A DNA stretch of 11,172 nt from a virus (Duplodnaviria > Heunggongvirae > Uroviricota > Caudoviricetes), in IMG/VR virus record IMGVR_UViG_2778261217_000001, positions 1-11,172 of that record; one strand, written 5' to 3'. Under the pieces are notes generated by a model. It made no database searches and had not been told where the DNA came from. It was given only the letters and a program-made list of their open reading frames with translations. Made by a program: the position numbers and the translations under genes. Of this stretch, positions 1-11,172 are shown piece by piece (position 1 is the first letter of the stretch; the number at the start of each line of letters is the position of its first letter).

Positions 1-1260
1 ATGAAGCTCAACGCCAGACAGGTCGAGACCGCAAAGCCAAAAGATAAAACCTACAAAATGGCCGATGGCGGCGGTTTATATCTTGAGGTTTCTGCAAAGG
101 GTTCTAAATACTGGCGCATGAAATACAGACGCCCCTCTGACAAAAAAGAGGATCGCCTCGCTTTTGGTGTTTGGCCTACCGTGACGCTTGCTCAGGCAAG
201 GGCAAAGCGTGATGAAGCTAAAAAGCTGTTAGTGCAGGGCATCGACCCAAAAGCCGAACAGAAAGAAGCTCAGGCCGTGAACTCGGGGGCATACACTTTC
301 GAAACTATCGCTCGTGAATGGCACGCCAGTAACAAGCGCTGGAGTGAAGACCATCGATCACGCGTTCTACGCTATCTTGAGCTTTATATTTTCCCCCATA
401 TCGGTTCGTCCGACATTCGGCAGCTTAAAACCAGCCACCTGTTAGCCCCGATTAAAAAAGTTGATGCCAGCGGCAAACACGATGTCGCTCAGCGCCTGCA
501 ACAGCGCGTCACGGCCATTATGCGTTATGCCGTACAGAATGATTACATCGACTCAAATCCAGCCAGCGATATGGCCGGTGCGCTATCGACAACCAAAGCG
601 CGACATTACCCGGCTTTACCTTCCAGCCGGTTCCCTGAGTTTCTTGCACATCTAGCTGCATATCGTGGCCGTGTAATGACACGGATCGCGGTCGAGCTTT
701 CCTTGCTAACTTTTGTGCGCTCCAGTGAGTTACGTTTCGCGCGTTGGGATGAATTCGACTTCGATAAATCTCTTTGGCGTATACCTGCAAAACGAGAAGA
801 AATTAAAGGCGTGCGTTATTCGTACCGAGGCATGAAGATGAAAGAGGAACATATCGTTCCGCTTAGTCGGCAGGCGATGATTTTATTGAATCAGTTAAAG
901 CAGATTAGTGGTGATAAAGAGCTGCTTTTTCCGGGGGATCACGACGCAACTAAGGTTATGAGTGAAAACACCGTAAACAATGCATTGCGTGCCATGGGTT
1001 ATGATACGAAAACTGAGGTCTGTGGGCATGGTTTTAGGACGATGGCGCGTGGTGCTTTGGGTGAGTCAGGGTTATGGAGTGATGATGCGATTGAGCGCCA
1101 GTTAAGCCACTCAGAACGTAACAATGTTCGTGCGGCGTATATTCATACTTCTGAGCATTTGGAAGAGCGTCGGCTTATGATTCAGTGGTGGGCTGATTAT
1201 TTGCAAGAGTGTTATAAAGGGCCAATAACGCCATACGAATTTGCAAAGAAATCTCAGTAG
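1..1260 (+). CDS. int: P4-type tyrosine integrase (site-specific recombinase)
   Basis: 419-aa ORF. N-terminus AKPKDKTYKMADGGGLYLEVSAKGSKYWRMKYR is typical of P4/CP4-57-type integrases; C-terminal catalytic motifs HGFRTMARG (H-x-x-R) and a tyrosine in AAYIHTSEH. ORF starts at window base 1, so no upstream tRNA/att context is visible. Confidence 0.9.
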   Translation: MKLNARQVETAKPKDKTYKMADGGGLYLEVSAKGSKYWRMKYRRPSDKKEDRLAFGVWPTVTLAQARAKRDEAKKLLVQGIDPKAEQKEAQAVNSGAYTFETIAREWHASNKRWSEDHRSRVLRYLELYIFPHIGSSDIRQLKTSHLLAPIKKVDASGKHDVAQRLQQRVTAIMRYAVQNDYIDSNPASDMAGALSTTKARHYPALPSSRFPEFLAHLAAYRGRVMTRIAVELSLLTFVRSSELRFARWDEFDFDKSLWRIPAKREEIKGVRYSYRGMKMKEEHIVPLSRQAMILLNQLKQISGDKELLFPGDHDATKVMSENTVNNALRAMGYDTKTEVCGHGFRTMARGALGESGLWSDDAIERQLSHSERNNVRAAYIHTSEHLEERRLMIQWWADYLQECYKGPITPYEFAKKSQ

Positions 1261-1280
1261 AAAACATAAAATCTATTAGT

Positions 1281-1296
1281 TGTGATAGATATCACT
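1281..1296. promoter_or_regulatory. CRP-like palindrome TGTGA-N6-TCACT upstream of the cargo operon (alternatively a weak int terminator stem)
   Basis: tgtgatagatatcact matches the CRP half-sites TGTGA / TCACA at 9 of 10 positions; perfect 6-bp inverted repeat gtgata/tatcac (1282..1287, 1290..1295); followed by a T-rich tract. Confidence 0.25.
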
Positions 1297-1406
1297 TTGT
1301 TTTTATTGAAATATAACGAGGTTTATGCATCATAGGGCATAGTGCAAGTATATAAATAGATAACAAGCTAATAATTTTTCAAGATAATTATATTAAGAGG
1401 TGTTTA

Positions 1407-1577
1407 ATGGAAGTTAACGTGGTCACCATTGTTTTGGGGGTGTGTTTGTTTGCTGCTATCGTTGCCGTGCCTGTATGGAAAATAAGCGCAAGATTTTTCT
1501 TCAAAGGAGGAGTAAAAAATAAACTCAAAAATGTTTCAATTAATGGCGATTATACTGGTCGAGATAAGAAAAATTAA
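1407..1577 (+). CDS. Small predicted membrane protein, 56 aa (not in ORF track)
   Basis: ATG at 1407 preceded by AAGAGG (1395..1400, 6-nt spacer). Translation MEVNVVTIVLGVCLFAAIVAVPVWKISARFFFKGGVKNKLKNVSINGDYTGRDKKN has one hydrophobic helix; ends in tandem stops TAA TAA. C-terminal 20 aa repeat the N-terminus of the next gene. Confidence 0.4.
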   Translation: MEVNVVTIVLGVCLFAAIVAVPVWKISARFFFKGGVKNKLKNVSINGDYTGRDKKN

Positions 1578-1652
1578 TAAGGCCATTGTATGGGTATTTT
1601 TAATAGGCTGAAAAATGTTTTTGTAAATGGTGATTATGTTGGAAGGGATAAA
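1509..1652 (+). repeat. In-frame imperfect tandem duplication (copies 1509..1568 and 1593..1652, offset 84 bp) spanning the end of the mini-ORF and the start of the 180-aa gene
   Basis: Peptide GVKNKLKNVSINGDYTGRDK versus GIFNRLKNVFVNGDYVGRDK (14/20 identical); the DNA copies align over about 46 bp at roughly 75% identity. Confidence 0.55.
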
Positions 1653-2132
1653 ATTGTCTATAATACAGAACCCACTCAGCTAATGCTATTGCAAGAGGAG
1701 TATCAGGAAGAGTTTAAAAATAGGCAAATTTGCACAGAAATGATTGATGAACTGAATCATTATAATACCAAAAAAAGTAAAGTGCGTGATTTGGAAGTTA
1801 AACTTAATGCTGCTGGGTACTCTTCCTTTCTTGACGAAGCTCGCGAGTTAAAAGAGTTGGTTTCGAAATTAATTATACAATATCAGCATTATCGCTCAGC
1901 ACAGAAAATAATCGCTTTTTTATTGTCAGACGTTCATTCAATTTTTCAATACAGAATAAAACCTCATATAGTAAATAAACAACAAGAGGCACAGATCCTT
2001 GAATTAATATATTTATATATAGAGTGTGAACTGAGTAGAAAGTTAGGTATAAATGCCTTGGAGATATATAATAGACAATTGCGTGGTATGGTTTTCTTCC
2101 TTACAGGAAACTGTCATTTGGAGTGGGAATAA
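1590..2132 (+). CDS. Hypothetical protein, 180 aa (cargo operon gene A; no recognisable motif)
   Basis: ORF in AT-rich island, same strand as and immediately after the mini-ORF; stop TAA overlaps the next start as TAATG (2130..2134). Confidence 0.6.
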   Translation: MGIFNRLKNVFVNGDYVGRDKIVYNTEPTQLMLLQEEYQEEFKNRQICTEMIDELNHYNTKKSKVRDLEVKLNAAGYSSFLDEARELKELVSKLIIQYQHYRSAQKIIAFLLSDVHSIFQYRIKPHIVNKQQEAQILELIYLYIECELSRKLGINALEIYNRQLRGMVFFLTGNCHLEWE

Positions 2133-2629
2133 TGTTATTATATAACAAGGCATTTGATATCAATCATACTATTCTAAGAATGTCTTCATGGCTGCTAAAT
2201 AGCTCTGAGCCGTTAATAAGTCTTGAGGGTATAAGAATATTTGACTTCTTAATAGCATTTCCTGAGTACATATCCAAGTTATCACTAGGGAAAGAATTAG
2301 TGAAGGAAAGAAATAAGTTCAAAAGGTTTTCTAACCCTTATAATGCTTTTGATCCTCAATCCTTGTTTCAGCAAATGGAAGGGGTGCAAAAATCTGCAAT
2401 TTGTTCTTTAGTAACAGCATCAGTTTTAGTAGAAATTAATAATGAATTATATGAAATAAAAAAAGATAAGTTATATGCGATTGGATTTACCAAAACCAAT
2501 CTTTTTGATAGCATAAACGAAGATGTGATCTCATTTATCAGTAACAATCTTGAGACATTACCTGTAACGGGAATAACTGGACTTAAGGCCGCTAGCAAAT
2601 TAATGAGTTTTAAATATGATCGTATATAA
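2132..2629 (+). CDS. Hypothetical protein, 165 aa (cargo operon gene B; ORF track starts it at GTG 2123)
   Basis: ATG at 2132 overlaps the upstream stop (TAATG); purine-rich ggagtggg at 2120..2127; 3' end overlaps the ATPase gene start by 14 nt. Confidence 0.6.
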   Translation: MLLYNKAFDINHTILRMSSWLLNSSEPLISLEGIRIFDFLIAFPEYISKLSLGKELVKERNKFKRFSNPYNAFDPQSLFQQMEGVQKSAICSLVTASVLVEINNELYEIKKDKLYAIGFTKTNLFDSINEDVISFISNNLETLPVTGITGLKAASKLMSFKYDRI

Positions 2630-4529
2630 TCCCACATTGAATATTAAAAAACTTTACGCATTCAAGGATGGTAAAGAGGTCATACACTTGAAGTTTCATA
2701 ATGGGCTGAATGTCATATATGGCTCGAACGGAAGCGGAAAAACCTCGGCAATTCAGTTACTCGCGTATGTTCTTGGTTCTACGATCTATAATTGGAAAGA
2801 AGAAGCAGGGAGTTGTGATTACGTTATAGCTGAAATTTACGCAAATGAGTCTACTATAACCATTCGTCGTGAGATAAGTGACACAATGGCAGGTATGAGC
2901 ATTTTTTTTGGTACATATGAAGAAAGTATCAAAGCAGGGAAAACTGGATGGTTTAGCTACCCCTACGCAATTTCTACTAACAAGGAAAGTTTTTCACAAC
3001 GTATCTTTGAAATCTTAAACATACCTGAGGCTAAATCTGACGGGATTAATAATCTTACTTTACATCAAATCCTAAGGCTGGTGTATAACAACCAATCTGA
3101 TTCTGCAACAAGTATATTTAACGACGAGAAGTTTGATTCCGCAATAAAACGAGAGTTTGTAAGTAATTATTTGCTCGGTTTGTATGATGATGATCTTTAT
3201 AATAATAAATTAGAGTATATTAAAAAAGAAAAAGAGCTAACAAAAACAATAGCTGAGTTAAAGGGTTTACTATTATTAATAGATGGTCAAGATCTTGATT
3301 TTAAATCTGATAATTTAGATAGCTTATCTGAACAATTACAGGGAAAGATCGATTCTATAATTGAAGAAATTGAAAAGTATAAAGAGTTAGATACACGGAT
3401 AAAATTTAGTAATGAAGTTAAGGCAATTAGTGCAGAACAATTAGTGAAGGATAAGAACAAGCTTATTGCCTTGGAGGTTGAATTAAGTCAAATACAATAT
3501 AATATTGTTGATTCAACCAAATTTATTGAAGAATTACAAAATAAATTACTTGCTATTAATGATTCAATTAAATTTAATAGTTCATTCAAGTTTAAAGAGT
3601 TCGATACCTGCCCATCATGTTTTACTAAGTTGCCAACTGCTCATGATGATAGTAAATGCTCTCTATGTGGTACAGAAGACCCGGATTCGGCAAAGCAAAT
3701 TAATTATGCTAGAATGAAAAATGAAATAATGATTCAAATCAACGAGTCACAAAATCTTTTGGAAAGGAATAAAATAAAGAGTGGTGAGATCTCAAAGCAA
3801 ATAAAATGCTTAAAAAGTGGAATGCGGAAAGAAGTTAACAAAGTTTCGGTTGTTAGTTCATCTTTGAATTCCCATGATGATAGCTTACTTTATAGTAAAT
3901 ATAAAGAGATTGGAGAGCTTGAAGAAAGACTAGATACTTTAGGTCGTATGGAGTCCGTTTATTCAAAAATTAAAACACTTCAGACTCTCCGCGATAGCTT
4001 ACAAGCCAGAGTTACATTTTTACAAGAAAACATTAGTAAAAAAGAACATGATCTTCAGTTAAAAATGCCAGCACTGAAAGAGAAAGTCAGTGAATATATG
4101 GAAGAAGTTTTAACTAAAGATGTCGAAAATATTGATGATCCTCATGATAAAGCTGAATTTAGTAACATAACTAGCATCGACTTTGATCTGGCTTCAAATA
4201 GGATTGTTGTCAATAATAAAGTCTCATTCTCTGAGAGCTCAATGTACTATCTTAATAATGCCCTGCATATAGCATTGCTAAAATTAAGTTTGGTTGATCC
4301 TAATGTAAGATTTCCACGTCTTTTAATTCTGGACGGTATAGAAAATGGTGGCATGGAAGATGCTCGCTCACAGGGTATCCAAAAAACTTTAAAAGAAATT
4401 TCTGATGAGTTTTGCGGGGTTCGGCATCAGATTATTATTACAACTAAAGGAATATACCATGCCGTTGATAATGATAAATATCGAGTTGGAGAAAAATTTA
4501 CTTCATCAAATCGTAGTTTAAATATGTGA
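2616..4529 (+). CDS. SMC/Rad50-like ABC ATPase, 637 aa (Walker A head, long coiled-coil, C-terminal Walker B-like segment)
   Basis: N-terminal LNVIYGSNGSGKTSAIQLLAYVLG (Walker A GSNGSGKT, SMC_N-like); long K/E/L/I-rich heptad-like middle containing CPSC-N13-CSLC (about 3609..3666); C-terminal FSESSMYYLNNALHIALL followed by RLLILDGIENGGMED (hydrophobic run ending in D, Walker B/D-loop-like). Confidence 0.8.
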   Translation: MIVYNPTLNIKKLYAFKDGKEVIHLKFHNGLNVIYGSNGSGKTSAIQLLAYVLGSTIYNWKEEAGSCDYVIAEIYANESTITIRREISDTMAGMSIFFGTYEESIKAGKTGWFSYPYAISTNKESFSQRIFEILNIPEAKSDGINNLTLHQILRLVYNNQSDSATSIFNDEKFDSAIKREFVSNYLLGLYDDDLYNNKLEYIKKEKELTKTIAELKGLLLLIDGQDLDFKSDNLDSLSEQLQGKIDSIIEEIEKYKELDTRIKFSNEVKAISAEQLVKDKNKLIALEVELSQIQYNIVDSTKFIEELQNKLLAINDSIKFNSSFKFKEFDTCPSCFTKLPTAHDDSKCSLCGTEDPDSAKQINYARMKNEIMIQINESQNLLERNKIKSGEISKQIKCLKSGMRKEVNKVSVVSSSLNSHDDSLLYSKYKEIGELEERLDTLGRMESVYSKIKTLQTLRDSLQARVTFLQENISKKEHDLQLKMPALKEKVSEYMEEVLTKDVENIDDPHDKAEFSNITSIDFDLASNRIVVNNKVSFSESSMYYLNNALHIALLKLSLVDPNVRFPRLLILDGIENGGMEDARSQGIQKTLKEISDEFCGVRHQIIITTKGIYHAVDNDKYRVGEKFTSSNRSLNM

Positions 4530-4539
4530 TTTTGAACAG

Positions 4540-4566
4540 GTGCGGCTTTAGCTGCACTTGTCTTTT
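4540..4566 (+). terminator. Candidate intrinsic terminator after the ATPase gene
   Basis: 7-bp stem gtgcggc/gctgcac (one G-U pair), loop ttta, then T-rich ttgtcttttg, 11 nt after the stop codon. Confidence 0.45.
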
Positions 4567-4761
4567 GAATAATAATATATCGCAATTATTAATTCCGTGT
4601 AACTTTATTATTGTCTATGTTATTTATAGATGTTGGCGTTATATTATCGGTCGATAATGGATTTGAGCTATTTTAGGTTAGTTAAAGTTGTTTTAAAAAT
4701 TCGATAAAGAAAATAATTTGATACTCACAAATCCTTTCTTAGCATACTTAAAGTACCTCTT

Positions 4762-4795
4762 ACGCGCGCAGCCCCGCCCGCCTGCCCGCTTCGCT
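4762..4795. other. GC-rich cos-like element (candidate packaging/cohesive-end site)
   Basis: acgcgcgcagccccgcccgcctgcccgcttcgc is an abrupt GC-rich block at the AT-rich island boundary; its reverse complement ggcgggcggggctgcgc resembles the P2/P4 cos end GGCGAGGCGGGGAAAGCAC as I recall it (partial match only). Confidence 0.25.
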
Positions 4796-4865
4796 TAACA
4801 GACTGGTTTTCATGCACCCCGTAAACCGTCTCAGAAGCCACCACACAAGGGCTTTCGCGTCAAAA

Positions 4866-4900
4866 ATGGCGCATGAGACTCATGCGTTTTCATGCGCCAT
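4866..4900. terminator. Nested palindrome / candidate bidirectional terminator or operator between convergent operons
   Basis: atggcgcatga (4866..4876) and tcatgcgccat (4890..4900) are perfect reverse complements; inner gcatgag-a-ctcatgc palindrome; A-run on the left and tttt inside. Confidence 0.35.
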
Positions 4901-4944
4901 AGATATGCACTCATACGCTCTCAGGCCAGCCAGGGAAAAGGCGT

Positions 4945-4969
4945 AAAAAATCCCGGTACTGGACCGGGA
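4945..4969 (-). terminator. Candidate intrinsic terminator of the sid-psu-delta operon
   Basis: Stem tcccggt/accggga (4951..4957, 4963..4969) with loop actgg; on the minus strand it is followed by TTTTTT (plus-strand aaaaaa 4945..4950); lies 23 nt past the delta stop. Confidence 0.45.
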
Positions 4970-4991
4970 CTTCGTGGTCGTATTTTGCTAA

Positions 4992-5264
4992 TCAGACAGG
5001 AATTTGCTGACGGTTTGACAGCTTTGACGCGGAGCCATAGCGATTGAGTGTTTGCTGTTGTTTTTCCGGTATTTTTGCTTTGTCTGATTCCTGTTCATTG
5101 CACTGAGGCTTCATAATGATCGTATCCACGCTTTCCAGTGCGGTAAATGTGCAGGAACATTCCAGATTCTGGCACTGATACCATGAGCGTTTAACCGACG
5201 GAGCTTCATAGGCGCTGGTTCTGGCGTGAGCGACCGCGCCACATTCAGGACACTTCAGGGCCAT
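4992..5264 (-). CDS. delta: Ogr/Delta-family zinc-finger late transcription activator, 90 aa (start moved to internal ATG)
   Basis: MALKCPECGAVAHARTSAYEAPSVKRSWYQCQNLECSCTFTALESVD carries the Ogr/Delta C-x2-C ... C-x4-C pattern. ATG at 5264..5262 is preceded by AAGGAG and sits 1 nt after the psu stop; the ORF-track start at 5366 would overlap psu by about 100 nt. Confidence 0.85.
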   Translation of the reverse strand: MALKCPECGAVAHARTSAYEAPSVKRSWYQCQNLECSCTFTALESVDTIIMKPQCNEQESDKAKIPEKQQQTLNRYGSASKLSNRQQIPV

Positions 5265-5265
5265 A

Positions 5266-5820
5266 TCAGCACACTCCTTTTTCATTAAGTCGGTTAAGGC
5301 GGGCCAGGAAAACTTTATGTTGTGCCGGGGTGAAACTGGCTGAAGCATCAGCGCGCATTGATGCATCCACCGTTAATCCGGTTTCGTCGATAATGCTCTT
5401 ATATGCTGCTGAAATTACCGGAGTACGGACTTCCGTTTGTCGGGCTACAGCGGTTCGTAATATTTTCATTGCCGCCTCAAGCCCGTATGGTGCACAAAGA
5501 AAAGGAGCCAGAGCGTCAGTGAGTGCATCACCATGCTCGCTCATGAAGTTTTCAGTTGCGCTTGTAACACAGCTTTCCAGCACAATCTGGTGAGCATAAA
5601 GACCATCCCGGGCGGCACAGTTAATCTGCCATTCGAGGAGTGCAAGACGCTCACGAAGATCCTCAAGTTGGCTGGCATATGCTGCGGGTTTTTCTTCAGT
5701 ATCCAGCAAAGCAGCCAGACGAAGCTGGCTGGTACTTTGCACATTACGTAGTGTCAGCCAGCTTTTTATTGCCGCGCGGTAATCGTTGAGAGCTTCCTGA
5801 GTAATGGTTCCGGTATTCAT
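5266..5820 (-). CDS. psu: Psu-like polarity suppression protein, 184 aa
   Basis: Size and motifs (EHGDALTDALAPFL, FTPAQHKVF) match my recollection of P4 Psu (about 190 aa); start ATG overlaps the sid stop (ATGA, 5817..5820). Confidence 0.75.
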   Translation of the reverse strand: MNTGTITQEALNDYRAAIKSWLTLRNVQSTSQLRLAALLDTEEKPAAYASQLEDLRERLALLEWQINCAARDGLYAHQIVLESCVTSATENFMSEHGDALTDALAPFLCAPYGLEAAMKILRTAVARQTEVRTPVISAAYKSIIDETGLTVDASMRADASASFTPAQHKVFLARLNRLNEKGVC

Positions 5821-6569
5821 TCCTTCTCGCCCCCTTTAGCCATGTCACGCTGTTTAAGCATCCGGGAACGTGCTGCAGGGCTGGGTGATTGTCTGGCATC
5901 CTGTATGGCTTTATCGTCCGCATAAATGCTGATCCCCGGCAGGGCAATATCATCCGTTGAAGATACGTTACAGAACAGTGCCGGAGTGGTGAGTTGCTCG
6001 CTGATAAATTGCTTCAGCACACTTTCGGGGTCGTTTACGGTATGAACTACACCGATAACAGAAGATGCGCTTCGGCCCAGAGTCATTTTCAGCAGTCCAA
6101 GGATCTGAATAAGTTTCTGGCCGTGTTCCTTCATAAACTCATTCCAGAGCCACACTGCATGAGTTTCAATCAGGTGATTATGTTCGCTGATGTAGCGGTT
6201 TGCAGCATCCGCAGTTTTCCATGGCAGGAATTCATTTTCTGCAGCCTGAGCAGCCAGCAAATCTTCGAACTCATCCAGTGTTTCGCGTCCGAGGGCGATT
6301 TCTGCCCGCAGTTTTTTCATTCGTGGCGTCATATTCCCCTGATTCTCACGAAACAGGTTTCGCCATTCATCATTAAGCGCCTGCGTCTCCGTTTTTGTAT
6401 CTTCCTGACGTTTACGGATAGTTTCAGTCATTGCAGCGGCTTCGGTTTGTTTTCGCCGTTCTTCCTGCCAGACAGCTTTTGCTGCCTTAACTTTTTCCAC
6501 CGCTTCGCGAATTTTCGGCGGGAGGGTGGGGGTAATGTTTGCATCAGAGATCTGGTTAACAGTTGTCAT
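5817..6569 (-). CDS. sid: Sid-like capsid size determination protein, 250 aa from ATG 6569 (ORF track starts it at TTG 6602)
   Basis: E/K/A/Q-rich helical protein at the head of the operon, coupled to psu; ATG at 6569 has GGAG with a 5-nt spacer, whereas 6602 is TTG without a Shine-Dalgarno. Assignment is by position and size; I do not recall a sequence motif for it. Confidence 0.5.
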   Translation of the reverse strand: MTTVNQISDANITPTLPPKIREAVEKVKAAKAVWQEERRKQTEAAAMTETIRKRQEDTKTETQALNDEWRNLFRENQGNMTPRMKKLRAEIALGRETLDEFEDLLAAQAAENEFLPWKTADAANRYISEHNHLIETHAVWLWNEFMKEHGQKLIQILGLLKMTLGRSASSVIGVVHTVNDPESVLKQFISEQLTTPALFCNVSSTDDIALPGISIYADDKAIQDARQSPSPAARSRMLKQRDMAKGGEKE

Positions 6570-6603
6570 GGCTGCTCCGGTAGTGTTTTGTTGTTGTGTC
6601 AAT

Positions 6604-6659
6604 TGTGCCGGGGTCCATACAAGCGCACTACCGAGGAGGATTGTGTCAGTGACTGAACA
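6604..6659 (-). promoter_or_regulatory. Two TGT-N12-ACA elements upstream of sid (candidate Delta/Ogr-responsive late promoter)
   Basis: tgtgccggggtccataca (6604..6621) and tgtgtcagtgactgaaca (6642..6659); TGT-N12-ACA is the consensus for Ogr/Delta-activated P2/P4 late promoters; the distal site centre is about 81 nt upstream of the sid ATG. Confidence 0.4.
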
Positions 6660-6726
6660 ATGACCTTGTTCTGGCTAGCCAGAGAAAGGTGTCATGTCTG
6701 ATCTATACGCTTCCTTTAATACATAC

Positions 6727-6930
6727 TATTCACTACTGTTCACTTCAATAAAAATATAGTAAATACATGTGGTTAAGTGGTGTAGTGTTTTAATTAAAGT
6801 GATCATCTACTGTTCATGACTGTTCACAGAGATAAAATTAAACATATATTTTTTTTTCATATAAGTCGCGATATTTATTTCAGTTTATTACTGGATCTTT
6901 TCTCCTCACCAATATTCACCAGTATTCAAT
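6727..6930. repeat. Iteron-like direct repeats in the AT-rich divergent region (candidate ori)
   Basis: Exact 8-mer actgttca three times in one orientation (6735..6742, 6809..6816, 6819..6826), plus tattcacc (6913..6920) and tattcaat (6923..6930); these resemble the P4 alpha-binding iteron TGTTCACC as I recall it. Confidence 0.35.
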
Positions 6931-7474
6931 ACATATTCTATGTAAAGAATAAAAGATGTCTTATGTCTGTTTAATAATTAAACATTCAACCTCCCTGCAC
7001 TCAGTTGCATTTCAGGAAAATATTCATAAAAATGAATTTGTCTGATGTTCATTAAACACATCCGGATACATGCGGAAGTAAGATGGTAATTTAATTTCTT
7101 TAATCATCGGATTTATTGATACATATGGTGAGCTGTTTATTTTTGGCCGTTTTTGGCTCTTTTATTAATCAGGTGTTGTCTTAGTGCTTATGATGTAACG
7201 CCCTGAATGATATGGGCTGGTTCAGATTTGAGCTGTGATCCTGCCTAGTGTAATAGACTTTTTTATTATTGATGCTCCTTATTATATTCCATAAAGGAAT
7301 TGTTTGTTTTTGTTCGTTTCATACGGTTTTTAGCTGTTTTATTTTTTGAGAAATCAACATTTCACACAAAATAAATAAAGCATGCGCGAGCCGCTTATAT
7401 AAACATAATAAGGAGCTACCTGAATCCGCATGGAATTGCCCGGACTGTTGTAAACATATTAGAGAGGTAGCCAG

Positions 7475-7735
7475 ATGAATAGTATTTCCGTTTCCACCCC
7501 GGCACCAGCTGCTCCGGTGCTCCCGGTTCCGGCTCAGCAGGAGCGCTTCATACGATTACCTGAAGTGATGCACCTTTGCGGGCTATCCCGTTCAACCATC
7601 TACGACCTTATCAGCCGCGATGCCTTCCCGCAGCAGATATCCCTGGGTGGAAAAAATGTGGCCTGGGTACAGTCGGAGGTCAGTGCATGGATGGCGGCGC
7701 GAATTGCTGCCCGCGAGCAAGGAGGCCATGCGTGA
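7475..7735 (+). CDS. alpA: AlpA-family (Vis-like) phage transcriptional regulator / excisionase-like DNA-binding protein, 86 aa
   Basis: [50 protein letters not shown] is the characteristic AlpA/MerR-like HTH core; SD gagg with 7-nt spacer before ATG 7475. Confidence 0.85.
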
Positions 7736-7770
7736 AACTTGCTTTGCAGTCTCATCTCCTTTTTTCTGGC

Positions 7771-7800
7771 TTGCGTCCTGATATCTTTTCCAGGTATAGT
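7771..7800 (+). promoter_or_regulatory. Candidate sigma70 promoter for the immunity/replication operon (PLE-like)
   Basis: TTGCGT (7771..7776), 18-nt spacer, TATAGT (7795..7800). Confidence 0.35.
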
Positions 7801-7830
7801 TTTCCCGCTGCCGCAAAATCGGCTGCCGGG

Positions 7831-7855
7831 CGTAGGAACCCGAGTTACTTATTGG
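7831..7855 (+). promoter_or_regulatory. seqA-like antisense target site (a/b boxes)
   Basis: gtaggaa (7832..7838) and cttattgg (7848..7855) are exact complements of ttcctac and ccaataag in the downstream antisense element. Confidence 0.4.
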
Positions 7856-7862
7856 CGACACC

Positions 7863-7885
7863 AGACGCGCCGTGCGTCTTTTTTT
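7863..7885 (+). terminator. Intrinsic terminator directly after the seqA-like site
   Basis: Stem agacgc/gcgtct (7863..7868, 7874..7879), loop gccgt, then seven T (7879..7885). Confidence 0.5.
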
Positions 7886-7949
7886 ACGTCGTTGCTCAGG
7901 CACACCCATTTTTCGGGCTGCGGTGCTTATACCTTAGCCCCTTTCAGAT

Positions 7950-8030
7950 AATGGTGGTCCGGGCGGGGCAGCCTTCGGGCTGGCCGGTTTCCAATAAGGC
8001 CGGTATTCCTACCCCCGTTCGGGTCACCAC
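7950..8030 (+). ncRNA. c4/CI-like antisense immunity RNA candidate (boundaries approximate)
   Basis: Structured GC-rich segment with a UUCG-loop hairpin (gggcagcc-ttcg-ggctggcc, 7966..7985) followed by ccaataag (7991..7998) and ttcctac (8006..8012), which pair with two bipartite target sites on the same strand; no plausible ORF. Confidence 0.4.
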
Positions 8031-8037
8031 CCATGAG

Positions 8038-8080
8038 CGTAGGAACTCCGGTGGTGGCATTTACCGCTACTTATTGGAGG
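8038..8080 (+). promoter_or_regulatory. seqC-like antisense target site overlapping the ribosome-binding site of the first small ORF
   Basis: gtaggaa (8039..8045) and cttattgg (8070..8077); the latter runs into GGAGG (8076..8080), the Shine-Dalgarno of the ATG at 8089. Confidence 0.4.
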
Positions 8081-8088
8081 TTGCCCTT

Positions 8089-8280
8089 ATGGCTACGATC
8101 CTCGCCCCGTCACATCCTCAATTTATATTTGTTTTTGCCGCCGTTCGTCGTGCAGAACGTAAACCACGTATCAGTATGCTGCGTATCATCGCCAGCAATG
8201 AGCATCATGCACGTCTTTCACTGGTCCATGAGTATGTGCTTTGTCTTGCTGCTCGCCTGCCTGTCCGGGAGGTGATCTAA
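8089..8280 (+). CDS. Small hypothetical protein, 63 aa (3' part of track ORF 7576..8280; first gene controlled by the antisense module)
   Basis: GGAGG with 8-nt spacer before ATG 8089; stop TAA overlaps the next start (TAATG 8278..8282); same RBS style as the two following ORFs. Confidence 0.4.
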
Positions 8281-8504
8281 TGAATCACGCCGCAATCTCT
8301 TATGACGATATTCTCCGCCTGAAGCATCTTCGTAACGTGGGAGAGTTTGTCACCGGAATGGCTGTTCTTCAGGATTGCTACGAAAAACCTGCCAGTGCTC
8401 AATGTGAACAACTGGTTTCCCTGATTTATCTGATGACAGAGCAGCTTGATGGCGTGGTACAGCGTTGCCAGGATGACCTCATGAACATGGAGGTGGTGCA
8501 ATGA
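8280..8504 (+). CDS. Small hypothetical protein, 74 aa (track ORF 8241..8504 trimmed to the ATG)
   Basis: GGAGG (8268..8272) with 7-nt spacer before ATG 8280; stop overlaps the next start as ATGA. Confidence 0.6.
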
Positions 8505-8824
8505 AATCACGTACTCTTTCCCTTTCACTTCGGGTAGCGTTGTATCGCCGCGCGGTAGCCTGCGCCTGGTTGAGTGCCTGCTATCAGCAAAACCGCCATC
8601 TGCAGCTCACTCTGGATGAAATTGAAACCGCTATTGCCCGTGAGCTTGAAGGATTTTATCTGCGACAGCACGGGCAAACAAAAGGCATGGAAATCGCCTG
8701 CGCCCTGCTTTCAGACCTGATGGAATACGGCCCTCTAATGTCCTGTCCCGCACTCTCCCAGCTCGGAATAGCCGTAATGGATGAGTTATGCGTCCGTCAC
8801 ATCAAAAAGCCGGTTTTACACTGA
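8501..8824 (+). CDS. Small hypothetical protein, 107 aa
   Basis: GGAGG (8489..8493) with 7-nt spacer; ATGA overlap with the upstream stop; ends 14 nt before the primase start. Confidence 0.6.
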
Positions 8825-8838
8825 GGGAGAACTGCGTC

Positions 8839-11172
8839 ATGTCAGGAATGAAAGTCAGTCAGGCCGTGAAGGCTGCCCGCGGTCACTGGGCTCAGATTCT
8901 GCCAGCGCTGGGCGTGAATATATTGAAAAATCGCCATCAGCCTTGCCCGGTCTGTGGCGGTAAAGATCGTTTTCGCTTCGACGATCAGGAAGGACGCGGA
9001 ACATGGTTCTGCAATCAGTGCGGAGCCGGGGATGGTTTAGCGCTTGTCACCAGGGCACTGAATGTGGATATCAGTGAAGCAGCTGACAGGATACATGGAC
9101 TGACACATGATCTGTCTATAGTTAATTCCGAGGTCAGGACGTTAACCGCCGATACCGATAGCGGGAAAGATGCAGCGGCAGCACTTGCCGCGCGACTGCT
9201 GCAAGCCTCGCGTGAATCTGCCGGAAACACTTATCTTACACATAAAGGTTTCCCGGAGCATATTTGCCATGAGCTGACTTCAGCTCATAAGGCCGGTGGT
9301 GTGATGTTCCGCCCCGGTGATTTGATCGTCCCACTCTATAACGCTGACGGGGAGCTGGTGAATATTCAGCTTATCAGTGGCAATGGTAGCAAGTGTTTTC
9401 TTAAAGGAGGTCAGGTTAAGGAGGCCTATCATCTGATAGAAGGGGGCGGGAGTTCTGTAAGAAGGATTTGGATTGCGGAAGGTTACGCCACGGCGCTTAC
9501 CATTCATTATTTGACAGGAGAAGCCGTCATGGTGGCATTTTCGTCGGTCAACTTTCTTTCTCTGAGCAGCGTTGCCCATAATAAGTATCCTGGATATCAG
9601 TTAATTATTGCAGCGGACCGCGATCTGAATGGTTCAGGCCAGAACAGGGCTGAAACTGCTGCAAAAGCGAGTCAGTGTGACATTGTGCTGCCACCGGTTT
9701 TTGGTGACTGGAATGATGCGCTTACCCAATACGGAGAGGAATCCACCAGGACGGCAATTCTTGAGGCTTTGAAGCCACATAACGCCAGTCCTTTCGACAC
9801 AATGAGTGAAGCAGAATTCACAGCGATGAGTGTCAGCGAAAAAGCTCAGAGGGTTCGGGAGCATTACAGGGATGCACTGGCGGTTGATTCGAACGGGCAG
9901 CTTTTATCCCGCTACGAGTCTGGAGCGTGGAAAGTTATTTCTCAGTCAGATTTTGCCCGAGATGTCGCAGCCCTTTTCCAGCGCCTCGGGGCACCGTTTT
10001 CCTCAGGAAAAATTGCCTCACTGGTGGAAACATTAAAGTTAATTGTTCCGCAGCAGCAAAATCCGTCACGTCATCTGATTGGTTTTCGTAATGGCGTTCT
10101 CGATACGCGAACAGGGCTTTTTAGTCCGCACTGTAAAGAGAACTGGCTGCGTACCCTGTGTGAAGTCGATTTCACGCCACCGGTAAAGGGGGAAACGCTT
10201 GAAACTCATGCCCCGGCATTCTGGCGTTGGCTGGACCGGGCCGCCGGACACAAGCCAGCAAAACGCGACATTATTCTTGCAGCGTTATTTATGGTGCTGG
10301 CGAACCGCTATGACTGGCAGCTCTTTCTGGAAGTGACTGGCCCTGGTGGAAGTGGCAAAAGTATTCTGGCTGAAATTGCGACCATGCTTGCTGGAGAGGA
10401 TAACGCCACCTCTGCGACCATTGAAACGCTGGAGTCCCCGCGAGAACGTGCGGCTCTGATAGGTTTTTCTCTTATTCGCCTGCCTGATCAGGAGAAGTGG
10501 AGCGGCGACGGCGCCGGGCTTAAGGCTATAACTGGTGGCGATGCAGTATCTGTGGACCCCAAATATCAGAATGCTTATTCAACACATATTCCGGCGGTTA
10601 TCTTGGCCGTAAATAATAATCCTATGCGCTTCACTGATCGCAGTGGTGGTGTGTCCCGCAGGAGAGTTATTCTGCATTTTCCTGAGCAGATAGCACCGGA
10701 AGAACGCGATCCGCAGTTGAAAGATAAAATTGCACGAGAACTGGCTGTGATTGTTCGTCAGCTCATGCAGCGTTTCAGCGATCCGATGAGCGCCAGAACA
10801 TTGCTTCAGTCGCAGCAGAATTCTGATGAGGCTCTCACCATCAAGCGTGATGCTGATCCAGCATTTGATTTTTGTGGCTACCTTGAGGCATTACCTGACA
10901 CCAACGGCATGTTTATGGGGAACGCCAATATTGTCCCGCGCCAGCCACGTACGTACCTTTACCATGCCTATCTTGTATACATGGAGGCTAATGGCTTTAA
11001 AAATACCCTTAGCCTGACAATGTTTGGCAAAGGGCTACCAGTTATGCTGAAGGAATACGGGCTAAATTATGAGAAGCGGCGAACTAATCAGGGAATGCAG
11101 ACTAACCTCACTTTAAAAGAGGAAAGTAATGCAGACTGGCTTCCCAAGTGTGATGAGCCAACAATCAAATAA
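8839..11172 (+). CDS. alpha: P4 alpha-type primase/helicase, 777 aa (start moved to ATG 8839)
   Basis: N-terminal zinc-binding motif CPVCGGKDRFRFDDQEGRGTWFCNQCG; acidic TOPRIM-like region (IIAADRD); Walker A VTGPGGSGKSILAEIA in the C-terminal half; SD gggaga at 8825..8830. The 777-aa length equals P4 alpha as I recall it. Confidence 0.9.
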   Translation: MSGMKVSQAVKAARGHWAQILPALGVNILKNRHQPCPVCGGKDRFRFDDQEGRGTWFCNQCGAGDGLALVTRALNVDISEAADRIHGLTHDLSIVNSEVRTLTADTDSGKDAAAALAARLLQASRESAGNTYLTHKGFPEHICHELTSAHKAGGVMFRPGDLIVPLYNADGELVNIQLISGNGSKCFLKGGQVKEAYHLIEGGGSSVRRIWIAEGYATALTIHYLTGEAVMVAFSSVNFLSLSSVAHNKYPGYQLIIAADRDLNGSGQNRAETAAKASQCDIVLPPVFGDWNDALTQYGEESTRTAILEALKPHNASPFDTMSEAEFTAMSVSEKAQRVREHYRDALAVDSNGQLLSRYESGAWKVISQSDFARDVAALFQRLGAPFSSGKIASLVETLKLIVPQQQNPSRHLIGFRNGVLDTRTGLFSPHCKENWLRTLCEVDFTPPVKGETLETHAPAFWRWLDRAAGHKPAKRDIILAALFMVLANRYDWQLFLEVTGPGGSGKSILAEIATMLAGEDNATSATIETLESPRERAALIGFSLIRLPDQEKWSGDGAGLKAITGGDAVSVDPKYQNAYSTHIPAVILAVNNNPMRFTDRSGGVSRRRVILHFPEQIAPEERDPQLKDKIARELAVIVRQLMQRFSDPMSARTLLQSQQNSDEALTIKRDADPAFDFCGYLEALPDTNGMFMGNANIVPRQPRTYLYHAYLVYMEANGFKNTLSLTMFGKGLPVMLKEYGLNYEKRRTNQGMQTNLTLKEESNADWLPKCDEPTIK

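Follow-up and report, generated by a model that had tools for sequence, protein, structure and literature searches.

A P4-like satellite prophage of Escherichia coli carries three chained small genes, with kil and orf106 homologues among them, ahead of its primase

The left operon of the satellite P4 has the order vis/orf88 - eta/kil with the CI RNA - epsilon - orf151 - orf106 - alpha. In the passages of PMC10111431 that deal with this region, which cite Forti et al. 1999, kil is described as nested in eta: kil is the truncated form translated from a constitutive promoter, the full-length eta is obtained only from an upstream late promoter, and eta translation prevents termination, the three elements eta, kil and CI being joined in one model. 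A related arrangement is the immI operon of P1 and P7, composed of the c4 antisense RNA, icd and ant1/ant2, and in the c4-icd-ant operon of P1 Icd is a cell-division inhibitor (PMC8198154). In N15, phiKO2 and PY54, which are linear plasmid-prophages, the anti-immunity locus consists of a CA RNA followed by icd and ant genes. The work of Biere, Citron and Schuster in 1992 is said to support the c4-icd scheme of P1/P7, and that of Forti et al. in 1999 reportedly does the same for the eta/kil scheme of P4. A fourth locus, isrK-orf45-anrP of Salmonella Gifsy-1, has been considered with IsrK as a homologue of seqA and with CI-mediated termination (PMC4825925). Here, we report the analysis of a window of 11,172 nucleotides (nt), the whole of IMG/VR record IMGVR_UViG_2778261217_000001 (Caudoviricetes) from position 1 to 11,172, in which three small open reading frames (ORFs), called here ORF1, ORF2 and ORF3, precede a primase gene.

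The window is a P4-like satellite prophage located at a tRNA-Leu gene of E. coli, and the three ORFs very probably make up the proximal part of its replication ('left') operon and are under immunity control, with the alpha-type primase-helicase gene (alpha) following them. The original prediction, made from the sequence alone, had described three ORFs of 63, 74 and 107 amino acids, each with GGAGG at 7-8 nt from its start, chained by TAATG and ATGA and ending 14 nt before the primase. All of these elements are present (Table 1): the stop codon of ORF1 and the start codon of ORF2 share TAATG, the stop codon of ORF2 and the start codon of ORF3 share ATGA, and nucleotides 8825-8838 separate ORF3 from the primase ATG at 8839. 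The GGAGG-N7-8-ATG pattern exceeds chance, as the window has four copies where 0.46 would be expected, and a count of four was not attained in any of 200 shuffles. When one genome per species was scanned with the alignment of ORF3/orf106, this yielded 73 related loci, all from Enterobacterales, and the gene chain, written kil-ORF2-ORF3-primase after the assignments given below, recurs across this order. Regarding the junctions, kil and ORF2 overlap by 4 nt in 55 loci and by 1 nt in 2, ORF2 and orf106 overlap by 4 nt in 64, and among 69 loci alpha starts 14 nt past orf106 in 39 and 8-15 nt past it in most others. The translational coupling proposed from the window is thus supported by the deep conservation of the overlaps. 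In the comparison across related satellites that had been suggested along with the prediction, the frames are kept, and with median pairwise ratios of nonsynonymous to synonymous substitution rates (dN/dS) of 0.18 for kil, 0.32 for ORF2 and 0.11 for orf106 among the related loci, all three ORFs are under purifying selection.

The original prediction had placed the ORFs at the position of the small kil/eta/epsilon-type or Icd-like genes of P4 and P1 and had assigned none of them by sequence. Profile searches, which it had also suggested, now assign two. ORF1 matches the NCBIfam Icd-like family NF033153 over residues 12-59 (70.4 bits, cut-off 25) and shares 71% identity with the C-terminal 65 amino acids of the old P4 'cI 137 aa' ORF, the segment that corresponds to the P4 kil product. 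Weaker relatives, 43-50% identical and annotated 'icd', are encoded by N15, phiKO2 and PY54. ORF1 is accordingly identified by sequence as a homologue of P4 Kil, an Icd-like peptide; it is strongly basic, with an isoelectric point (pI) of 11.2, and by homology it would block cell division or kill when in excess. ORF3 matches DUF5375 (PF17345) at 2.4e-48 over profile positions 2-106 of 106 (162.9 bits, gathering threshold 30) and is 70% identical to P4 ORF106, which makes it an orf106 homologue. The kil/eta/Icd-like placement therefore holds, and none of the three ORFs is epsilon.

The immunity control of this operon is indicated by two RNAs encoded upstream of ORF1, an isrK/seqA-type leader and a C4/CI-type antisense RNA. 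Both are above the Rfam gathering threshold and they stand in the order seqA leader, CI RNA, seqC target; both RNAs, arranged alike, are also present in P4, where CI is at the homologous place. Its own stem aside, the C4 RNA pairs best in the region through a duplex of 14 bp between 7985-7998 and 8070-8083, which covers the GGAGG of ORF1, and an 8-bp copy of this target is found at 7848-7855 in the isrK-like leader. A second box of the RNA, box 2, pairs from 8006-8012 with the two copies of its target at 7832-7838 and 8039-8045. When aligned with P4, all RNA and target boxes differ in compensatory fashion: seqB is CCAATAAG in the window and CCTGTGAA in P4, the seqA/seqC target CTTATTGG and TTCACAGG, box 2 TTCCTAC and TTCTCAC, and the box 2 target GTAGGAA and GTGAGAA, respectively. 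Among 65 distinct loci, seqB pairs with seqA at 8 of 8 positions in every case, compared to 14.7% of non-cognate pairings, and box 2 pairs at 7 of 7 positions with both targets in every case, compared to 25% of non-cognate pairings. In each of the 65, part of the cognate duplex falls on the kil Shine-Dalgarno sequence (SD). The seqB cores of these loci are of 12 kinds and the box-2 cores of 6, giving 24 combinations, each matched to its own targets, and the boxes look like a combinatorial set of immunity specificities.

It had been noted that ORF1 lies hidden inside a 234-amino-acid ORF running through the RNA region and is absent from a simple gene call. The second statement is borne out by RefSeq, where the PGAP annotation has a 182-amino-acid Icd-like ORF from GTG 7732 and not the 63-amino-acid gene. 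As to the first, ORF1 is indeed the in-frame 3' end of a TTG ORF at 7576-8280; this long ORF, however, is no artefact and is the eta homologue, since its frame extends without interruption as far upstream as the alpA stop codon in 50 of the 62 loci having both alpA and kil, and a start codon is placed on that stop codon in 48 of the 62 (as an ATGA or GTGA overlap in 42 of those 48). In the window, GTG 7732 overlaps the alpA stop as GTGA. The Pfam family Phage_ASH (PF10554) matches residues 22-131 of this eta-type product (window 7795-8124), a stretch that passes through the isrK and C4/CI RNA genes. It should be noted that the fourth GGAGG-N7-ATG of the window, at 7675-7689, lies inside alpA and in the eta frame; its ATG at 7687 would give an Eta of 197 amino acids and may be the start really used, the start on the alpA stop being here a GTG and not the usual ATG.

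The single 182-amino-acid 'Icd-like' coding sequence of PGAP, the long translation modelled by Phage_ASH and the conservation of the long frame in 50 of 62 loci could also mean that only the long eta-type protein (182-234 amino acids) is made, ORF1 being no separate gene and ATG 8089 incidental. We consider this quite unlikely. In every locus examined, kil starts with an ATG preceded at 7-8 nt by GGAG(G), and seqC falls exactly on the kil SD in 65 of 65 loci, a position that makes sense only with initiation there. By contrast, the long frame is closed in 12 of the 62 loci, in which kil is intact. For P4, moreover, an equally nested Kil has been reported to be made as a product of its own (PMC10111431, in its passages citing Forti et al. 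1999). The 63-amino-acid kil should therefore be annotated beside the long eta ORF.

Onto the gene identities, RNA matches, complementarity, covariation, overlaps and purifying selection observed here, a scheme can be laid in which translational repression, termination by Rho, anti-termination by eta and Kil toxicity would act as in P4, P1 and N15. In the immune state, a constitutive PLE-type promoter, proposed by homology with P4, would produce a leader that is processed to the C4/CI antisense RNA. Two loops of this RNA would pair with the bipartite target copies, seqA in the isrK-like leader and seqC on the kil SD. Blockage of the kil ribosome-binding site would keep ribosomes off the C-rich, G-poor start of the gene, Rho would then terminate transcription, and kil, ORF2, ORF3 and the primase would be off. 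Over its first 90 nt, kil is rich in C and poor in G (GC skew -0.28 over 8060-8180), a composition that might suit Rho loading. In the induced state, transcription would begin farther upstream, before alpA, which would be the first gene of this long (PLL-type) transcript. Ribosomes that complete alpA would start again at the overlapping start codon of eta and go on across the RNA genes and into kil, and this continuous translation would override both RNA pairing and termination. At the TAATG and ATGA junctions and across the 14-nt gap, the ribosomes would then be handed on to ORF2, ORF3 and alpha, leaving no untranslated stretch exposed to Rho, with the primase-helicase as the regulated output of the operon.

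Several points weigh against this reading of the operon. A strict sigma-70 consensus scan of 7200-8900 called no promoter. The intrinsic terminator at 7863-7884, between the promoter and the C4 RNA, may limit the amount of transcript reaching kil; since it lies inside the isrK-like leader, an additional IsrK-type control layer, as in Gifsy-1, may exist. The Rho site is drawn from base composition and from P4 only. P1 Icd was not recovered by tblastn at E<=1e-3, and the toxicity of Kil rests on homology. Finally, searches with ORF2 and ORF3 against Pfam families of known function, PDB sequences, PADLOC and Foldseek gave no hint of a biochemical activity.

Table 1. Features of the window around the three ORFs (all positions in the window)
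Feature	Position	Strand	Details
ORF1 (kil)	8089..8280	+	ATG 8089, TAA 8278-8280; 63 amino acids; GGAGG 8076-8080, 8-nt spacer
ORF2	8280..8504	+	ATG 8280, TGA 8502-8504; 74 amino acids; GGAGG 8268-8272, 7-nt spacer
ORF3	8501..8824	+	ATG 8501, TGA 8822-8824; 107 amino acids; GGAGG 8489-8493, 7-nt spacer
eta-type long ORF	7732..8280	+	182 amino acids from GTG 7732; 'Icd-like' in PGAP; crosses both RNA genes, with kil as its 3' end
PLE-like constitutive promoter (putative)	7771..7800	+	TTGCGT, 18 nt, TATAGT; RNA start near 7807; block conserved with P4
isrK/seqA-type leader RNA	7807..7884	+	Rfam RF01394, 72.1 bits
Parts of the isrK-like leader	7832-7838 (box 2 target); 7848-7855 (seqA); 7863-7884 (intrinsic terminator)	+	Terminator from a terminator scan
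C4/CI-type immunity antisense RNA	7947..8034	+	Rfam RF01695, 83.4 bits; loops carry seqB 7989-7998 and box 2 8006-8012
Downstream target of the immunity RNA	8039..8083	+	Box 2 target 8039-8045; seqC 8070-8083, overlapping the ORF1 GGAGG 8076-8080
alpA/vis-type regulator gene	7475..7735	+	Pfam Phage_AlpA, 4e-20; 66% identical to P4 orf88/vis (tblastn)
alpha-type primase-helicase gene	8839..11172	+	Pfam Zn_Ribbon_Prim, Toprim_3, D5_N, Pox_D5; PGAP agrees

The DUF5375 family, to which ORF3 belongs, is confined to Enterobacterales, and orf106 lies immediately upstream of the alpha primase-helicase gene. Invariant residues of ORF3 include E50-Y53. An AlphaFold2 model built from 41 sequences is all-alpha and of low confidence, with a predicted local distance difference test score (pLDDT) of 58, and no credible match to ORF3 was found by Foldseek or by a PDB sequence profile search.

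ORF2 matches phrog_10110, a PHROG family carrying no assigned function, over its full length (8.5e-41), and homologues with 42-97% identity are found directly upstream of orf106 in 67 of the 73 loci. The protein is acidic (pI about 5), carries the conserved motifs LEHLRNVG and QL.S.IYLMT.QLDGVV.RC, and keeps among its invariant residues across genera H16, N19 and G21. Its AlphaFold2 model is a generic two-helix hairpin (pLDDT 72), for which Foldseek against the PDB returned nothing below E=5 and, above that value, only designed helical bundles. ORF2 and 11 diverse relatives gave no Pfam match, and ORF2 gave none in a PDB sequence profile search or in PADLOC. A word-indexed protein search returned close relatives only, at least 74% identical, and an exhaustive profile search 22 proteins, mostly of 41-86 amino acids, with four much longer, weak matches and none of them named. 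The family is thus small and confined to these satellite elements. Two P4 proteins were considered as candidates for ORF2 and rejected: neither epsilon (PF25738) nor orf151 gave a BLASTP alignment, and the hhalign probabilities were 0.3% and 0.1%, respectively. P4 epsilon itself matches PF25738 at 9e-51.

True epsilon homologues (PF25738) are present in 11 of the 73 loci only, so that about 85% of the sampled satellites are devoid of one. As ORF2 directly follows kil, where P4 has epsilon, and is a small, acidic and helical protein, a build common among protein inhibitors, it might be thought to replace epsilon functionally, as an antirepressor that derepresses the helper prophage where a satellite has no true epsilon. 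This is improbable. ORF2 shows no sequence or profile similarity to epsilon, and it stands alongside epsilon and/or orf151 in 8 loci (L014, L023, L026, L028, L032, L044, L055 and L070), in which these genes are located between kil and ORF2; L014 has orf151 only, without epsilon. In the inserted module, the kil/epsilon and epsilon/orf151 junctions are 8-nt overlaps and a gap of ~70-110 nt with a conserved hairpin precedes ORF2, so that epsilon/orf151 behaves as an insertable cassette. In such loci ORF2 stays with orf106, ~800 nt from kil; its invariable linkage is to orf106 and alpha, not to kil, which argues against a simple substitute for epsilon and equally against an antidote to Kil. The latter idea, a toxin-antidote pair made of a basic, toxic Kil (pI 11.2) and an acidic ORF2 (pI about 5) whose ratio is set by coupled translation, draws on these opposite charges and on the direct coupling of the two genes in 57 loci; since P4 and its relatives have kil without ORF2, and ORF2 is separated from kil where epsilon-orf151 is inserted, we give it hardly any credit.

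P4 and its near-identical relatives are without a full ORF2, and the gene is completely deleted in L059. In P4, a 21-codon ORF (L002 4259-4324, MPYQLMQPARNAVICHREKSK) still has the SD and the start codon of ORF2 and meets orf106 in ATGA; it apparently arose by a deletion within ORF2 that left the coupling intact, and the retention of SD and junction suggests that the coupling itself was kept. The same remnant, together with the importance of kil/eta translation for P4 anti-termination in the corresponding passages of PMC10111431, could be taken to mean that the ORFs are translated spacers shielding the mRNA from Rho, their protein products being functionless. The dN/dS values of 0.11-0.32 and the many residues invariant across genera, which indicate selection on the proteins, and the tightly conserved protein lengths make this very unlikely. 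For ORF2 and ORF3, the likeliest role is an accessory one, in the replication driven by alpha or in host/helper takeover, and the linkage of ORF2 to orf106 and alpha, not to kil, argues weakly for a role in the replication module. It is conceivable, although we regard it as doubtful, that ORF2 and DUF5375 form a two-protein module needed by most P4-like satellites, one half of which was lost in P4. If so, the module might serve as a partner or regulator of alpha, as a factor acting on the host replisome or in helper takeover, or as the missing helper derepression, this last role being suggested by the about 85% of sampled satellites without a true epsilon.

Two gene families located between the 'epsilon' marker and alpha were described by Moura de Sousa and Rocha in 2021: one encodes a 75-amino-acid protein of unknown function, absent from P4 and present in 61% of P4-like elements, and the second is present in 90% of them (PMC8628076). 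They fit ORF2 and orf106, being matched by size, position and absence from P4, not by sequence. It should be noted that this survey used PF10554 as 'epsilon' marker, the real P4 epsilon being PF25738. Because Phage_ASH (PF10554) models a translation through the isrK and C4/CI genes, the 'epsilon' core gene of that scheme is really the eta/kil/immunity-RNA region (in P4, L002 2858-3454).

Regarding the host element, several E. coli chromosomes match the region 7400-8900 at 100% identity, and a related copy of it is found in 1181 of 5426 complete E. coli genomes; the strains with at least 99% identity number 158, NIPH17_0036 among them. In NZ_AP024561, the element adjoins a tRNA-Leu gene, and the order of genes is integrase, a three-gene ABC-three-component system, ogr/delta-like, psu and sid-like, then an alpA-type regulator, the 182-amino-acid 'host cell division inhibitor Icd-like protein', a hypothetical protein, DUF5375 and the primase-helicase. 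This order identifies the layout as that of a P4-like satellite. In the window, the three ORFs are likewise flanked by alpA, primase, psu, sid-like and int genes.

Three further regions of the element were noted. Between the integrase and psu genes, positions 1590-4529 (+) hold three low-GC genes at the defence hotspot of P4-like satellites, named 'ABC-three component system' by PGAP; the 637-amino-acid product matches PADLOC LmuB (8e-35) and the 168-amino-acid product weakly matches LmuC, so that these genes look like Lamassu-type anti-phage cargo. In the region of the ogr/delta-like gene (4529-5266), the window is 163 nt longer than NZ_AP024561: PGAP gives delta as truncated in NZ_AP024561, and the window has a 90-amino-acid zinc-finger ORF, starting at an internal Met of the ORF 4992-5366 (-). 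Finally, TGT-N12-ACA, the type of site bound by Ogr/Delta at P2/P4 late promoters, occurs as dyads at 6604-6621, 6642-6659 and 6811-6828, all in the divergent sid/alpA intergenic region; the enrichment is not significant, with three in the whole window versus 2.4 expected.

The finding is correct and mostly known, as the design of the operon is already well described in the literature and the locus adds one more example of it. RefSeq already covers the three genes, ORF1 only within the 182-amino-acid Icd-like coding sequence. The main gain is in annotation: the 'hypothetical protein' encoded by ORF2 is a conserved satellite gene, and the block from alpA to the primase can be read as one translationally chained, RNA-controlled switch. 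P4-like satellites are present in a large share of Enterobacterales genomes, and ORF2 and DUF5375 are among the best-conserved genes of the operon, of which P4, the sole studied model, lacks the full ORF2. The covarying specificities of the immunity RNAs could also help to predict which satellites are heteroimmune.

Compared with the known systems, the locus shares with isrK-orf45-anrP of Gifsy-1 an IsrK-type leader with an intrinsic terminator and a processed downstream RNA. In Gifsy-1, the next gene depends, via coupling, on the translation of a small ORF upstream of it; there, by contrast, the short IsrK RNA activates translation in trans, and the output is an antirepressor-like protein and the AntQ antiterminator (PMC4825925). 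The anti-immunity locus of N15, phiKO2 and PY54 is alike in its RNA-region DNA, which is 76-80% identical, and in its Icd-like protein, with the identity given above. It belongs, however, to temperate phages and not to satellites, its downstream genes are antirepressors, and it is without ORF2, DUF5375 and alpha. With the immI operon of P1/P7, the likeness lies in an Rfam C4 RNA directly upstream of an Icd-like gene and in an RNA that targets the ribosome-binding region of the first gene, the downstream genes depending on the translation of that gene (PMC8198154). The window differs in its cargo, a primase-helicase and two small proteins instead of an antirepressor, in a similarity to P1 Icd seen only at the level of hidden Markov models, and in the nested eta ORF coupled to alpA. 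As compared with P4, the window lacks epsilon and orf151, has a full ORF2 of 74 amino acids instead of the 21-codon remnant, and has another immunity specificity, by both its seqB and its box 2; its kil/ORF2 junction is TAATG and not the usual ATGA. All the same, the window and P4 agree in gene order and strand, in the places of the isrK/seqA-like and C4/CI RNAs, in the nesting of kil within an eta ORF whose start lies on the stop codon of alpA/vis, in a seqC lying on the kil SD, and in the 14 nt that separate orf106 from alpha in both.

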